From Escherichia coli (GTDB taxonomy: Bacteria > Pseudomonadota > Gammaproteobacteria > Enterobacterales > Enterobacteriaceae): a stretch of 64,000 bases of DNA. The number at the start of each line of letters is the position of its first letter. Positions within the stretch are counted from its first letter, which is position 1. The position numbers are program-made. This document shows positions 23,501 through 29,500 of this stretch, in pieces. The stretch lies in the NCBI RefSeq assembly GCF_965641715.1, contig NZ_OZ282453.1; one strand, given 5' to 3'.

Positions 23501-26500
23501 TCTGAAAACGCTGTTCAGCGCGAAGCAGTTTAATATCTTCAATCGACTGCACGGCTTCCACCAGCGTAGCGTTGCGTACCGCTGACTCGCGCATTCCTTC
23601 GTTCGCCAGCCGCGCCAGCGGGCGTTGCACCAGCAGGCCGGGGATCACCAGCAACGGCAGCGCCAGCAAAACCACCAGCACCAGCCAGCCGCCGATCATC
23701 CACAAAATAAAGACAAACAGCAGGAAGAATGGCAGGTCCGCCACCGCGCCGATGGTGGTGGACGTAATCAGCTCCCGCACTGATTCCAGTTCGCGGATCT
23801 GCGAGATAAACGATCCGGTGGATTTCGATCGCACGTTGTTTTTCAGCCGTAATGCGTGACCAAAAACGCGATCCGAAATACGCAGATCCGCCCGCTTGCC
23901 GATCACATCAGAAAGATGCGTACGCACCATGCGCATACAGAACTCAAACAGGATCGCCATCATCACCCCGGCGAAAAGCACCCATAGCGTCGGATAGGAC
24001 TGCGCAGGAACCACCCGATCGTAAACCTGCATCGAGAAAATCATCGCTGCCAGCGCCAGCACGTTCGCCACCAGTGACGCCAGCATAATATCGCCATAGC
24101 GCCGCCAGTCTTTTAGCGAGAGGTTCCAGAACCAGTTCGCCTGATACGGGCGAATATAGTCATCCACCCGCGCGTCAGGGATGGCGCTGAGAGGGCGCAG
24201 CAGCGCCAGTTCGACGATTTTATCCTCGACATCCGCGACGTTAAGCGTGGTTTCCAGCCCTTCGTCACCGCTGAACTGAACGCTGATATTGTCATGATTG
24301 TCGCGACGGGTGATCACGCCAATCTGCTGATTATCAAACACCGCGATCAGCGGCAGACGCCAGGGGTTAAGCGAATCGGCGGAAAACTCCACCAGCCGTA
24401 ACCCCATTCCCAACTGCCGCGCCATGTCGGTGAGCAACTCTTCCCGCTTGCTGTCGCGCTCCCAGTTGACGGTTGCGCGCACATTCTCCTGAGAAAAATC
24501 AAGGCGATAATAGCGCGCCACGGCGATCATCGCCTCCAGCCAGGCTTCCACGGACTGGGCATTTTTTTTCATTATCTACACCACCATCAACTGATGATTC
24601 GCCAGCAAAGTGGCGAGGTCGGTGTGCACGCCCGTCAGCGTGACCACGTTAGTTGTCGCAAAAGTGCCGCCCGTGCCGTCGCGGTCGATCTGCACGATGG
24701 TGTCGCTGCCGCTCTGGGTGACTTTGACAAAGTCACCGATGTTTCCGGCCTGCGCATCCAGCGTTGCCACGCCGTTGACGTAGCTGGCTTTGCCGTTGCC
24801 GGTGTAGCCGCTGCCCTGTAACAGTTCACGAATATCAATGCGATCAGTGTCGGCGGTGCCTTCCCATGTCCCTACCGTAAAGCCATTCACCACGTCTGAG
24901 CCGTTGCCTCCGGTGGCGTCGCTGGCGTTGAGCAGTTTATAGAGCAAGGTGTCATGGCCGCCGTTGCCGATGTTGAGCGTGTCGTTGCCGCCGCGCCCTT
25001 CAAGTTGGTTATCGCCGCTGCTGCCGGTCAGAATGTCGTTAAAATTCGAGCCGGAAATGCCTTCGATATTGGTAAATGTCGAGGTGTTAAAACCGGTGGC
25101 CTGCGCGGCGGTGCTGCTTAAGTTAGCCGTCACGCCCACCGTCGAAAGCCGGAAATCAACCACGTCCATCCCGCCGTTCGCCAGCCACGTTCCGGTGCCG
25201 GAGCTGTACACCCAGCCGCCGGAACCGTCGTAAGTGTCGGTGCCTGCGGTGGCAAAGAAGGTGTCGTTATAGCCGGTGCCGACGAACTTGCCGTTGTTAC
25301 TCGCGGTACCCGCTTCAGCGCTGAGATCGTAAGCGTGAGTGGCATCGGTGGCCTGTAAACCGCCCCAGCTGGTGTTGACCGTCTGGTCGATATTGCTGGC
25401 GGTGGTGCCGGTGGATTTGATCAGCACCGCGTTGTAGGTTTCTCCGGCATTCAGCCCGTAGAAGTTGACCACCGCCGAGGTGTCGTTAACCCCCATCCCC
25501 GACTGCGGGTTAATGATTTGCGTGGCGACCAGCACTCCCGCCGAGTTGTACAGCTTCACGGTATTGCCGTAATAGACGTTAATGCCGTTGGGATCGGTGA
25601 TGCGCAGGTGTAGCGAAGTGCCGTAGCTCACCGTGTTGGTGTTGCGGATCAGGAACACGCTGCCCGACTGTTTGGTCACCAGCACATCCACCGCGCCGTC
25701 CCAGTCGTAGTCCATTGCCGCCACGCCGCTGGTGGTACCGCTCTGGCTGCCGCCGAGGGCTGATTGTGTCCAGTTGCTGGCACCACCAACGTTGGTGTAA
25801 AGATACGATTGTCCGGTCTGGGCGATACGGGCGATATCCATCAGGCCGTCATGGTTCCAGTCCACCGCCAGGCTAAACTGGCTGGCGTAGGTGGTTGCCG
25901 TTGCGCCCACCGCCACCGGGCTACCCAGTACGCCGTTGGTGTTGAATAACAGCGAGCCGTAGTTAGCTCTTCCCTGGCTGGCGGGCAGGAAGAGATCCAT
26001 ATCGCCGTCACCATCGAAATCGGCCCAGGTCATGGAAACGCTGCTGCTCATAGCGCCACTGCCCGCCCCGCTCAGGAAGGTATTGGTGGTGTTCTGCCCC
26101 CAGACAAACGTCCCATTCCCCTGGTTGATGAGCGAAGATAGCGTGTAATAGTTGTTCAGGTTGTAGGTGTGCTGAACCAGGTCGATCCTGCCGTCATTAT
26201 TCAGATCGACGCCAGAACCTTCGTTGAGCGAAAGATACCCCGTCACCGCCCCGCCCACCGTGGCGCTACCGCCGCTGTTCGACGTGGTGGAGTTACCTAC
26301 CAGCGTACCTGCGTTGTTCCACAGGAAGGTGTTGGAGTCCGGCCCGCCCGCGTCGCCAATCCAGAAGTCGAGATAGCCGTCGCCCTCTTTATCAAATGCC
26401 ACAATCGAGCCATACCACGTCAGCGTGCCGACGGTGACCAGAATGGCGCTGGAAAACGTACCGTCACCGTTATTGGTAAAGCCGTTGATATAGCCTGTAC

Positions 26501-29500
26501 CGTAGTCATCACGGGTGATAAACAGATCGCCCGTGCCGTTACGGTCGTAATCGGCAATGGAGCTGGTGGCGTAGTTGTTGCCGCTCTGATACAGCGTCAG
26601 CGCGGTCTTCGACCAGGTGAGTGGGTCAGTCGATTGCATTACCTGCTGGTTTGCCAGCACCGTCCACATCCCGTGCGAGTCGAGGCCGTAGGTCAGCCCC
26701 CAGGCGGTGGTTTTGCTGGCGGTAGTCCAGGTCGGTGTGTAATCAATCGCCGCGTTAACCGTTACCGTGCCGTTGCTAATATTGGCGTTATTGCCGTTAC
26801 CCGCCGAACTTTTTACCTGCGCAGTAACGGTATAGGCGGTCGCGGAAACTGTCAGCGCATCGGTATCCGGCAACTGTACATACCAGGTGTTGTGCGCCGG
26901 ATCGACCACTACCGCGCCGCCCGGTTCAGAGGTGTAGGTTTTGCCGTTGATCACCACTTCAACATACTGCCCACTGGCAAGCGCGGCGGTGATCACCCCG
27001 CTGATAATCGGCGTAGTATCGCGCGTGGTCTGGCTGGTGATTTGCGCCAGCGTGGTCGGAATAGAGGTATCGACCGTCAGGACAAAATCACTAGAGGAGG
27101 TGATATTCCCCGCCAAATCCACCACTCGCGCGCTGTAGGTATAGGCACCGCTCACCAGCCCGCTGTCGCTGTAGGTCCAGTTCAGAGCGCCGACCATCGT
27201 CACCGCCCCTAACAGCAGCCCGTTACGGTAGAGGTAAACCACTTCACCGCTGGCAAGCGGCGCGGAAAGTACACCGTTCAGCAGCGGCGTAGTGTCGTCG
27301 GTGGCCTGCGAACTGCTTAATGTCCCCTGCCGCTGCCCGACATCATCGGTATACGACACAATACCTGGCGTGGCGGTAGGGTTAATCGTATCGACCACCA
27401 CCGTTTTCGATACCACCGGGCCGGTGTTCCCCGCCAGATCCAGCACCCGAACCTGATAAACGTAGCTGCCGTCGGTCAGCGTGCGGCTGTCGGTGTAGGT
27501 CCACTGTGTACCGTTGGTGGTAAGCGTGATCCAGGTCGCGCCGCTATCAAGGCTAATCTGCGCCACTTCGCCGCTGGCAAGCCCCGCTCCCAGCGAACCG
27601 GTCAGCGTGAGCGTGGTATCGCTGGTGATAAAGTCAGTTGCCGAACTCCCCGTGTCGGTGCTAATGCTGGCGATGGTGAGCACCTGCGCCGGGTTAACGG
27701 TGTCAATCTGCGCCGACTGGCTGCCGGTTGCGCCAACGTTGCCCGCCAGATCGACCACCCGCACCTGCCAGGTGGTGGTGCCGTTGGTGAGGGTTCGTCC
27801 GTCAACGTAACTCCAGTTCAGGCCGTCTGCTGCTAGCGTCACGTTCACCCAGGTTGCGCCGTTGTCGGTACTGATTTGTGCGAACTCATTAGCGCCGAGC
27901 GCCGCGCCCAACACGCCGCGCACGGTAAGCGTGGTGTCGCTGGTAATAAAATCGCTGCTGCTGGCTCCGGTGTCATCGCTGATACCGGTAATGGTGATAC
28001 TTTTCGCCGCTTCCGGGCTGGTGGTGTCGACCACCACATTTTGCGTCGCGGTCTGCCCGACATTCCCCGCCAGATCCACCACCCGCACCGTGTAGTTCCA
28101 GGTGCCGTCAGTAAGCGTGCGACCATCGGCATAGCTCCAGCTGGTGCCGATAACGGTTAACGTAGTCCAGGTGACGCCGCCGTCGAGGCTGATTTGCGCC
28201 CGTTCATCTGCCGCAAGCGCCGCGCCGAGCGTGCCGCGCACGGTCAGCGTGGTGTCGCGTGTAACAAAATCGCTGCTGCTTAACCCGGTGTCATCGCTGA
28301 TGCTCGCAATGGCGATGGTTTTGCTCGCCAGCGGCGCGGTGGTATCCACAGTGACTATCTGGCTGGCAGTCGCGCCGATATTTCCGGCGGTGTCGATCAC
28401 CCGCACCTGGTAGTTGTAGTTGCCATCGGTCAGCGTACGCCCGTCAAGATAGCTCCAGGTCAAACCGCTTACCGAAAGATTCTGCCAGGTGGTGCCGCCA
28501 TCAATGCTGATTTGCGCGAACTCACCGGCAGAAAGCGTCGCCCCCAGCGTGCCGCTCACCGCAAGCGTCGTGTCGCTGGTGACAAAATCGTTAGTGATCA
28601 AGCCCGTATCGGTGGTGATCGCGCTGATGGCGATGGTTTTCACCGCGGGATCTGGCGCGGTAGTGTCGATCACCACATTCTGGCTGTCGGTCGCGCCAAC
28701 GTTGCCCGCTACGTCAATCACCCGCACCTGATAGAGATAGTTGCCATCGGTCAGCGTGCGGCTGTCGTTATAGCGCCAGGTCGTGCCGGTAACGGTAAGC
28801 GTGGTCCAGGTTACACCGCCGTCGATACTGATTTGCGCCGTCTCGTTACTGGCAAGCGCGGCGGTGAGCGAGCCGTTGACCACCACCGGGCTGACGCTGG
28901 TGATAAAGTCACTGGCGCTAAGGCCAGTGTCGGCTTGCAGGGAATCGATATTAATACCCATCGCCGGGGCGCTGAGATCGACGGTAATGGTGTGATTGCT
29001 GCTGCCGGTATTGCCAATGGCATTGCTCACCGAGGCGTTAATCACGTAGGCGTTGCCGTCCGCCAGCGCGGTGACATCGGCGCTGCCGAGGGTGTAGCTC
29101 CAGCTACCGCCCGTCTGCACCGTGGTGGTGTAGGTTTTGCCGTTTAAGGTCAGGATCAGCGTCTGCCCGACGGGCGCGGTGGTGGTGCCGCTGATCACCA
29201 GCGATGAGCCGTGTTCCGCTGCATTCACCACATCGTCGCCCGCAAAGGTGTTGATGGTGACGGTGGGCACGTCGCCGTTCAGCGTCACGCCACGGCTGGC
29301 GCTGCCGGGGTTTCCGGCCTGATCGCTAACCGTCGCGCTAATGGTGTAGCTGCCGTCGCTTAATCCGGCAAACTGCTGCGCCGGAATAAACACCGACCAG
29401 CTTCCGCCGCTGCCAACCGTTGCGCTCCAGGTTTGCCCGTTAAAGGTGACGGTCACCGTCTGGCCCACTTCGGCGGTGGTGGTGCCGCTGATGGTCTGCC

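Follow-up and report, generated by a model that had tools for sequence, protein, structure and literature searches.

The window analyzed here is a 64,000-nucleotide stretch of the Escherichia coli contig NZ_OZ282453.1 (assembly GCF_965641715.1), and the present study concerns the C-terminal tip of SiiEA, a giant adhesin encoded on its minus strand. An earlier note on this DNA described the tip as a composite of variant immunoglobulin (Ig)-like domains, a propeller, an UnbV/ASPIC-like segment, an RTX β-roll and a secretion signal, and placed it at positions 24576-28980. These coordinates are correct and correspond to residues ~5462-6929, the last ~1,468 codons of the gene. Judged by its sequence matches, the gene is siiEA, the RTX adhesin gene of O-island 28 (OI-28) in enterohaemorrhagic E. 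coli (EHEC) O157:H7 and O145:H28, which is accompanied by a dedicated type I secretion system (T1SS). SiiEA residues 1-234 match NCBIfam NF047714 (BapA-related adhesin SiiEA) with 504.1 bits against a cut-off of 425, the DNA of the tip is 98.5% identical to siiEA of O145:H28 and 98% identical to that of O157:H7, and RefSeq names the gene siiEA. The gene occupies the same site as OI-28 siiEA of EHEC, between cueR and ybaT, with the same TolC, ABC and HlyD genes; the chromosomal order in the O145:H28 and O157:H7 relatives is cueR-hlyD-hlyB-siiEA-tolC-ybaT. Whereas siiEA of EDL933 is divided into two open reading frames (ORFs) and that of RM12581 contains an internal stop, siiEA of the window is a single intact ORF of 6,929 codons. 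The siiEA gene and the OI-28 locus are already known, and it is the architecture of the tip that is undescribed in the literature searched; in that literature, an FG-GAP or propeller head of an RTX or type I adhesin does not appear, apart from a passing BLAST mention. The novelty ascribed to this combination of domains in the earlier note was overstated, because the gene is annotated as the SiiEA/OI-28 adhesin and the same tip is conserved across many Enterobacterales.

The gene and the domains of its tip, listed in the order in which they occur in the protein, are as follows.

24576..45365, minus strand: siiEA, intact ORF of 6,929 aa with its stop codon at 24576-24578; BapA-related adhesin SiiEA, the OI-28 RTX adhesin
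27372..28964, minus strand: five type-2 Big_13 Ig-like domains, residues 5468-5998, period ~106 aa (Pfam Big_13, E 2e-13 to 1.5e-8)
26751..27371, minus strand: two divergent Ig-like domains, residues 5999-6205, joining the stalk to the head (first domain, Big_13 E 6.6e-9; hidden Markov model (HMM) built from the protein itself, E 4e-25 and 9e-15)
25635..26699, minus strand: FG-GAP β-propeller, residues 6223-6577, seven predicted blades with Ca2+ loops in blades 2-7
25341..25634, minus strand: β-sandwich right after the last blade, residues 6578-6675, in the position of the ASPIC domain in CRTAC1
24876..25340, minus strand: two short degenerate RTX blocks forming a β-roll, residues 6676-6830 (HemolysinCabind E 3e-4; family profile against CyaA)
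24579..24875, minus strand: type I secretion C-terminal target domain of the VC_A0849 subclass, residues 6831-6929 (TIGR03661)

Domain composition of the tip

The last ~1,470 residues are unlike the repetitive stalk that precedes them. The HMM of the type-1 Ig domains of the stalk scores 3-40 bits on the last seven Ig domains of SiiEA, and 3-27 bits on the five type-2 domains among them, compared with about 110 bits in the stalk. Moreover, the super-repeat of the stalk stops near 29164, which also sets the tip apart. The type-2 domains, matched at residues 5481-5996, carry the motif DTGxSxSDF...RTLT(D/N)G and are covered at the DNA level by a tandem array (TRF) of period 318 nucleotides at 27898-28839. 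The two divergent domains that follow are matched at residues 6015-6103 and 6109-6204. Pfam Big_13 calls six of the seven. Thus, the variant Ig domains noticed earlier are real, but only five of the supposed seven contain the quoted motif, and the set is better described as five plus two.

The central element of the head is a genuine FG-GAP propeller. Six loops of the pattern D.[DNETQ].[DN]G..D start at residues 6272, 6325, 6387, 6449, 6502 and 6552 with a spacing of 50-62 residues, and a whole-protein scan finds this pattern nowhere else in SiiEA. Shuffling of the segment yields a mean of 0.014 loop matches, with six reached in none of 5,000 shuffles. Pfam calls three FG-GAP_3 repeats (E 1.5e-9, 4.9e-8 and 1e-6) and one FG-GAP repeat (E 0.008) in the head, FG-GAP models match 21 of the 23 head family members, and the loop positions D1, G6 and D9 are invariant or nearly so among 65 homologues. 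We infer from these loops that the predicted propeller would bind calcium at six sites. In addition, the head is free of cysteine, and its acidic residues far outnumber the basic ones; both features fit a type I substrate that stays unfolded until it meets extracellular calcium.

The structure of the head was predicted with AlphaFold2 using residues 6206-6929 (724 residues) and an alignment of 23 whole-head homologues. The resulting model is an ordered propeller rather than a disordered chain, with a predicted local distance difference test score (pLDDT) of 80.1 and a predicted template modelling score (pTM) of 0.85. The blade count was read from the DSSP strand string of the model, in which seven four-stranded blades extend over model residues 18-372 and the calcium loop is located between strands 1 and 2 of blades 2-7. 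The N-terminal blade lacks such a loop and is modelled with lower confidence. The six-bladed propeller proposed earlier therefore stands as an FG-GAP propeller with six calcium loops, but its number of blades is predicted to be seven. In the model, the blades are followed by a sandwich (373-470), a roll with short strands ~9 residues apart (~487-625) and a C-terminal domain (626-724), and the pTM of 0.85 over all 724 residues suggests that these domains are predicted to form one compact multi-domain body. The order of variant Ig domains, FG-GAP propeller, β-sandwich, RTX β-roll and type I secretion domain is thus supported by the model and by the Pfam and NCBIfam searches, which back the FG-GAP and RTX assignments alike.

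The best fold match of the head model is the crystal structure of mouse CRTAC1 (9etn_A; Foldseek E 3e-14, 520 columns). Other structural neighbours include the integrin-like lectins PVL, PAL and BP39L, the UmbA4 lectin and integrin alpha subunits, and these neighbours are seven-bladed propellers. When the head is compared with solved structures by sequence, RTX proteins and CRTAC1 are the only matches. An I-domain-like insertion of the integrin type, or any other large insertion into the propeller, was found neither in SiiEA nor in its distant homologues, which contain insertions of 12-20 residues in their blade loops and no inserted domain.

Is the domain that follows the propeller an ASPIC domain, as the earlier note suggested? 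The quoted segment (LHLRITDPNGINVYYGNTVKLYNS...) is found at residues 6585-6650, and its assignment to the UnbV/ASPIC family fails at the sequence level. A search with Pfam PF07593 (UnbV_ASPIC) leaves the query and all 23 family members unmatched, even with the limit set at E<=10. Profile-profile comparison (hhalign) of the isolated segment with 25 true ASPIC segments gives a probability of 0.2% (E 0.35), and larger alignments (65 versus 47 sequences) give an E-value of 0.44. A full-length profile-profile comparison with 25 CRTAC1-like proteins reaches a probability of 99.7% in an alignment that runs through the segment, because the FG-GAP repeats carry the score. The isolated sandwich model matches only generic FN3/Ig sandwiches. 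The structural alignment of the head model with 9etn_A comprises 421 aligned residues, compared with the 355 residues of the propeller, so at least about 66 aligned residues would come from the following domain, most likely the sandwich. Since the sequence-level ASPIC tests fail, we describe the segment as a β-sandwich in the ASPIC position of CRTAC1; it may be a remote ASPIC homologue and is not a demonstrable member of the UnbV_ASPIC family.

The sandwich is followed by the RTX roll, in which degenerate nonapeptide blocks are located at residues 6694-6740 and 6770-6812. The nonapeptides that had been read as GGxGxD repeats do belong to an RTX β-roll, as indicated by HemolysinCabind and by the CyaA profile match, but they are few and degenerate, with a single strict GGxGxD (GGNGSD, residue 6819). 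The family profile of the head matches the RTX blocks of CyaA (E 8.5e-17) and family I.3 lipase, and the structural matches of the roll are PrtC and LipA, representing the serralysin-type proteases and lipases. A secretion signal at the C-terminus, which ends in ...LLANHQLMVV, is borne out by TIGR03661 (T1SS_VCA0849), whose score of 38.8 bits over residues 6824-6926 exceeds the cut-off of 17.6.

The C-terminal target domain is not always terminal in other species. In a Pseudomonas carbonaria locus (L067, 6001-8121), the whole head, including this domain, is internal and is followed by ~870 more residues with Ig-like sequence, and four other loci (L060, L070, L076 and L079) contain an extra RTX segment of ~195 residues after the head. 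The TIGR03661 region may consequently be a folded domain and not only a terminal signal.

Conservation of the head and the rest of the locus

The distribution of the head was surveyed by a scan of one genome per species for loci encoding the full head. The full 724-residue head occurs in at least 136 proteobacterial species genomes with 37-96% identity. Its carriers among the Enterobacterales include Escherichia sp., E. whittamii, Pseudocitrobacter, Cedecea, Enterobacter, Lelliottia, Pluralibacter, Rahnella, Rosenbergiella, Erwinia, Pantoea and Trabulsiella, and outside this order the head is found in Pseudomonas, Acinetobacter, Comamonadaceae, Paraburkholderia, Neisseriaceae and a Bartonella metagenome-assembled genome. 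Most loci with enough flanking DNA have the order type-1 Ig, type-2 Ig, head, ABC and HlyD, and this recurrence across species identifies the head as a conserved cassette rather than an oddity of E. coli. Database annotations of fragments already read 'FG-GAP-like' or 'VCBS repeat-containing protein'. Within E. coli, the tip is present in 957-958 of 5,426 complete genomes (~18%), always on the chromosome and in one copy per genome; the core genes of the window reach 99.3% identity to E. coli and occur in 5,418 of the 5,426 genomes.

Conservation is distributed unevenly along the head. Blades 1-2 are ~30% identical to the query and blades 3-7 are 41-49% identical; the corresponding values are 56% for the sandwich, 72% for the RTX part and 66% for the C-terminal domain. 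Pairwise ratios of nonsynonymous to synonymous substitution (dN/dS; Nei-Gojobori method) among the window, O145:H28, Escherichia sp. E1V33, E. whittamii and Pseudocitrobacter are 0.02-0.24 in every part and are highest in blades 1-4. The head is under purifying selection, and its N-terminal blades change faster than the rest.

Two further observations concern the evolution of the head. Between the window (24579-28964) and O145:H28 (L001), synonymous divergence is ~0 in the type-2 and the final type-1 Ig domains and reaches 0.05-0.18 across the propeller, the RTX part and the C-terminal part, a mosaic that suggests a recombination breakpoint near the Ig/head junction. At least two paralogous head loci per genome are found in Limnobaculum allomyrinae (L060/L076), Acinetobacter gerneri (L043/L069) and Enterobacillus tribolii (L036/L070); the head loci of Trabulsiella odontotermitis come from strain 01 (L039) and strain TbOT1.10 (L048/L079/L080). 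Paralogous heads within one genome diverge unequally (for example, 50% versus 38% identity to the query), which would fit heads of different specificities.

The remainder of SiiEA and the genes beside it complete the locus.

44970..45353, minus strand: N-terminal BapA prefix-like domain of SiiEA, residues 5-132 (Pfam BapA_N PF22783, E 2e-19; NCBIfam NF033677, 70.9 bits)
28977..44531, minus strand: stalk of ~52 type-1 Ca2+-tandemer Ig-like domains, residues ~279-5463, period ~99 aa (self-built HMM; NF033510 Ca_tandemer, NF012196 Ig_like_ice)
22410..24572, minus strand: ABC permease/ATPase of type I secretion, LssB subfamily, 4 nucleotides downstream of siiEA (TIGR03375, 837 bits; cut-off 693)
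21238..22413, minus strand: HlyD-family periplasmic adaptor, downstream of siiEA (TIGR01843, 327 bits, above cut-off)
45468..46823, minus strand: TolC-family outer-membrane channel, directly upstream of siiEA (TIGR01844, 416 bits, above cut-off)

HMMs built from the protein itself identify 60 Ig-like domains in the whole of SiiEA. With the type-1 profile, 52 full-length domains at residues 279-5463 reach 88-126 bits, preceded by a weak partial match at residues 206-266. At a higher level, the stalk is a super-repeat of six Ig domains, whose direct repeats are spaced by 1,794-1,803 nucleotides; it is present in about 7-8 copies at ~29164-44130 on the minus strand, with a DNA identity of 60-84%. 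Repeats of this kind are prone to assembly errors and to changes in copy number. Such instability or misassembly may explain why many RefSeq copies are called a pseudogene or an 'Ig-like domain-containing protein'.

The BapA prefix-like domain is the presumed cell-proximal retention end of SiiEA. The di-alanine motif TAAG is located at residues 97-100 (window positions 44907-45077 on the minus strand span residues 97-153) and has the consensus of the sites at which the LapG protease cuts LapA-type adhesins. The motif is followed at residues 129-153 by the Gly-rich hydrophobic stretch FPWGWLAGAAVGGGALGALLASGG, which could thread the outer-membrane channel. Among the ORFs beside the siiEA locus, to which this search was confined, there is no lapG- or lapD-like gene. 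A sequence search of the N-terminal 300 residues against solved structures gave no significant match.

Two plus-strand ORFs that overlap the tip, at 26169-27212 (347 aa) and 28512-29147 (211 aa), were rejected as antisense artefacts, given that the domain matches and the purifying selection all lie in the minus frame; they are most likely by-products of coding-strand composition. Outside the T1SS genes, a 579-aa coiled-coil protein is encoded on the plus strand at 18368-20107, between ybbJ and cueR. It ends in a YadA-type membrane anchor (...GVGVGYSF), and the corresponding position in O145:H28 encodes a shorter 'YadA-like family protein' with which it shares 81-92% identity; an NCBIfam search with the 579-aa protein returned no match. 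A second adhesin gene thus adjoins the T1SS island.

A proposed distal head and competing explanations

What is the biological function of this head? In EHEC O157:H7 and O145:H28, OI-28 is reported to be required for early, calcium-enhanced adherence and for colonization of the gut; at the level of the whole locus, deletion of OI-28 lowers epithelial adherence and mouse colonization, RstA activates OI-28, and calcium enhances the effect (PMC12758282). The report of these results mentions 'RTX' and 'Ig-like' domains only, and FG-GAP, VCBS and propeller are absent from its text (PMC12758282). We propose, with a probability of roughly 0.6, that the region studied here forms the distal head of the giant OI-28 adhesin SiiEA, a type I secretion substrate, and that it operates as follows. 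The unfolded, cysteine-free and acidic SiiEA chain would leave the cell with its C-terminus first through the adjacent ABC, HlyD and TolC proteins, as is the case in its family. On meeting extracellular calcium, the C-terminal domain and the RTX roll would fold first, and the sandwich and the six-calcium propeller would then complete a compact head; the calcium dependence of this step is suggested by the motifs. The ~60 calcium-stabilized Ig domains would subsequently stiffen into a stalk of some hundreds of nanometres that holds the head away from the cell, while the N-terminal BapA-prefix domain presumably stays in the outer-membrane channel and anchors SiiEA to the cell. Finally, the distal CRTAC1/integrin-like propeller-sandwich would make the first contact and bind a ligand of the host or the environment, which is probably either a glycan or a protein.

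A role of the propeller as a receptor- or ligand-binding head is plausible by analogy, on account of its position, its fold relatives (lectins, integrins and CRTAC1) and the variability of its loops. In the N-terminally retained RTX adhesins MpIBP, FrhA and AhLap, the ligand-binding domains are distal (PMC12077191). Furthermore, the fastest change, in blades 1-2 (~30% identity versus 72% in the RTX part), and the loop insertions of 12-20 residues are found where the binding surface would be. We further advance, as a tentative proposal, that the propeller-sandwich represents an uncharacterized class of RTX-adhesin ligand-binding module, namely an in-line, calcium-dependent, CRTAC1/integrin-like lectin or protein-binding head that may set the receptor specificity of OI-28 in EHEC O157/O145 and, with its variable blade loops, that of adhesins in >100 proteobacterial species.

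Several points weigh against a distal ligand-binding head. Constructs with only two Ig-like domains partly complement the OI-28 defect, and adhesion has been ascribed to the Ig repeats (PMC12758282). The known ligand-binding domains that RTX adhesins carry usually bud from 'split' Ig domains (PMC12077191), whereas the SiiEA propeller is in line with the stalk and does not bud from a split domain. N-terminal retention is assumed, with neither a LapG nor a LapD gene next to the locus, and many E. coli genomes have siiEA split or annotated as a pseudogene. Weaker constraint could be enough to explain why blades 1-4 change faster, and region-level pairwise dN/dS gives no sign of positive selection in any region. 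The ligand step itself is drawn by analogy, with both ligand and pocket hypothetical.

The propeller-sandwich might instead serve secretion, as a calcium-driven folding cap or ratchet that blocks back-sliding and drives export of the stalk, with adhesion provided by the Ig repeats. This explanation would account for the six calcium loops being the most conserved feature of the propeller, for the position of the head beside the RTX and secretion domains with conservation that climbs towards the C-terminus, and for the pTM of 0.85, which suggests that propeller and β-roll may form one compact body. It also accords with the partial rescue of adhesion by two Ig-like domains (PMC12758282) and with the view that C-terminal RTX domains begin to fold during secretion (PMC12077191). 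However, among secreted RTX adhesins and toxins, many have just an RTX roll, which makes a further module of 450 residues needless for a ratchet, and the nearest folds of the head are lectins and receptor-type propellers. Variable blade loops are likewise unexpected in a purely structural plug, and in one Pseudomonas homologue the module is internal with more Ig domains after it. We regard a cap or ratchet as unlikely.

If the head does bind a ligand, its target could lie on the bacteria themselves rather than on the host: their own exopolysaccharide, O-antigen or other SiiEA molecules, in a cell-cell or matrix role such as that proposed for Salmonella BapA. The BapA-related N-terminus and stalk of SiiEA agree with such a role, and so does the frequency of the cassette in plant-, insect- and soil-associated Rahnella, Rosenbergiella, Erwinia, Pantoea, Variovorax and Pseudomonas, which points to a ligand not confined to mammals. 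The phenotypes reported for OI-28, by comparison, are epithelial adherence and gut colonization (PMC12758282), and we consider binding to self or matrix in place of a host receptor to be quite improbable. A stalk-displayed enzyme, for example a polysaccharide lyase, hydrolase or dehydratase, is suggested by the presence of aldos-2-ulose dehydratase (4a7k) and virginiamycin B lyase (2z2n) among the seven-bladed structural neighbours. Such an assignment was rejected, because Pfam and NCBIfam reveal no enzyme family and because, among the structural matches, enzymes do not score better than WD40 propellers; an enzymatic propeller is very improbable.

The proposal that the region is the distal head of SiiEA has consequences that can be stated in advance. 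The work on OI-28 left the host-contacting part of the adhesin unassigned, and the present analysis defines a compact 724-residue head with exact boundaries, whose predicted core, the six-calcium FG-GAP propeller, lends itself to expression, deletion or blocking. If this head binds a defined glycan or protein, a receptor can be named for an adhesin that is present in ~18% of complete E. coli genomes, and a new type of binding domain for RTX adhesins as well as an anti-adhesion target would be at hand. If it binds nothing, the head would still be a good model for studying how calcium gates the folding of a non-RTX domain once type I secretion has taken place.

Comparison with known adhesins and propellers

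SiiEA contains the features of RTX and type I giant adhesins, namely a BapA-type prefix, an Ig array, an RTX roll, a C-terminal secretion domain and adjacent T1SS genes. Among its close counterparts is the biofilm-associated protein BapA of Salmonella, which shares with SiiEA the BapA prefix domain (PF22783, NF033677), tandem Big_13/Ca_tandemer Ig domains and a secretion domain of the VCA0849 type, together with a T1SS of its own. Salmonella BapA has ~3,800 residues, about half the length of SiiEA. Salmonella proteins and loci are absent from the relatives of the head in the best 120 proteins and the best 80 loci, a result that does not extend to the C-terminus of BapA, which itself was not compared. 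The di-alanine motif TAAG at residues 97-100 recalls the LapA-type adhesins, which are associated with LapG and LapD, but SiiEA has it without adjacent lapG or lapD.

On a wider scale, MpIBP of Marinomonas, FrhA of Vibrio cholerae, AhLap of Aeromonas and LapA of Pseudomonas have a plan in common with SiiEA that consists of an N-terminal retention end, a long Ig extender stiffened by calcium, a varied region free of repeats, an RTX roll at the C-terminus and a type I signal (PMC12077191). The match of the SiiEA stalk to the Ig_like_ice model (NF012196) likewise links it to RTX adhesins with distal ligand-binding regions. The ligand-binding domains of characterized RTX adhesins are PA14-type carbohydrate-binding domains, peptide-binding domains, von Willebrand factor A (vWFA) domains, ice-binding rolls and RTX-type rolls (PMC12077191), whereas the candidate in SiiEA is an in-line FG-GAP propeller with a sandwich.

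The propeller lectins PVL of Psathyrella (4up4), PAL (5mb4) and BP39L of Burkholderia (6gxr) and integrin alpha resemble the SiiEA head in fold only, with sequence identities of 11-18%, and SiiEA and its distant homologues lack an I-domain-like insertion of the kind seen in integrin alpha. Vertebrate CRTAC1 contains a C-terminal EGF-like, cysteine-rich domain; SiiEA, which has no cysteine, differs from it in having no EGF-like domain. With respect to CRTAC1 (9etn) and the bacterial 'CRTAC1 family', the SiiEA sandwich gives no UnbV_ASPIC match, and the isolated profiles are unrelated by score. Features of SiiEA beyond those of CRTAC1 are the RTX roll, the type I signal and the placement of the head at the end of a 6,200-residue stalk.

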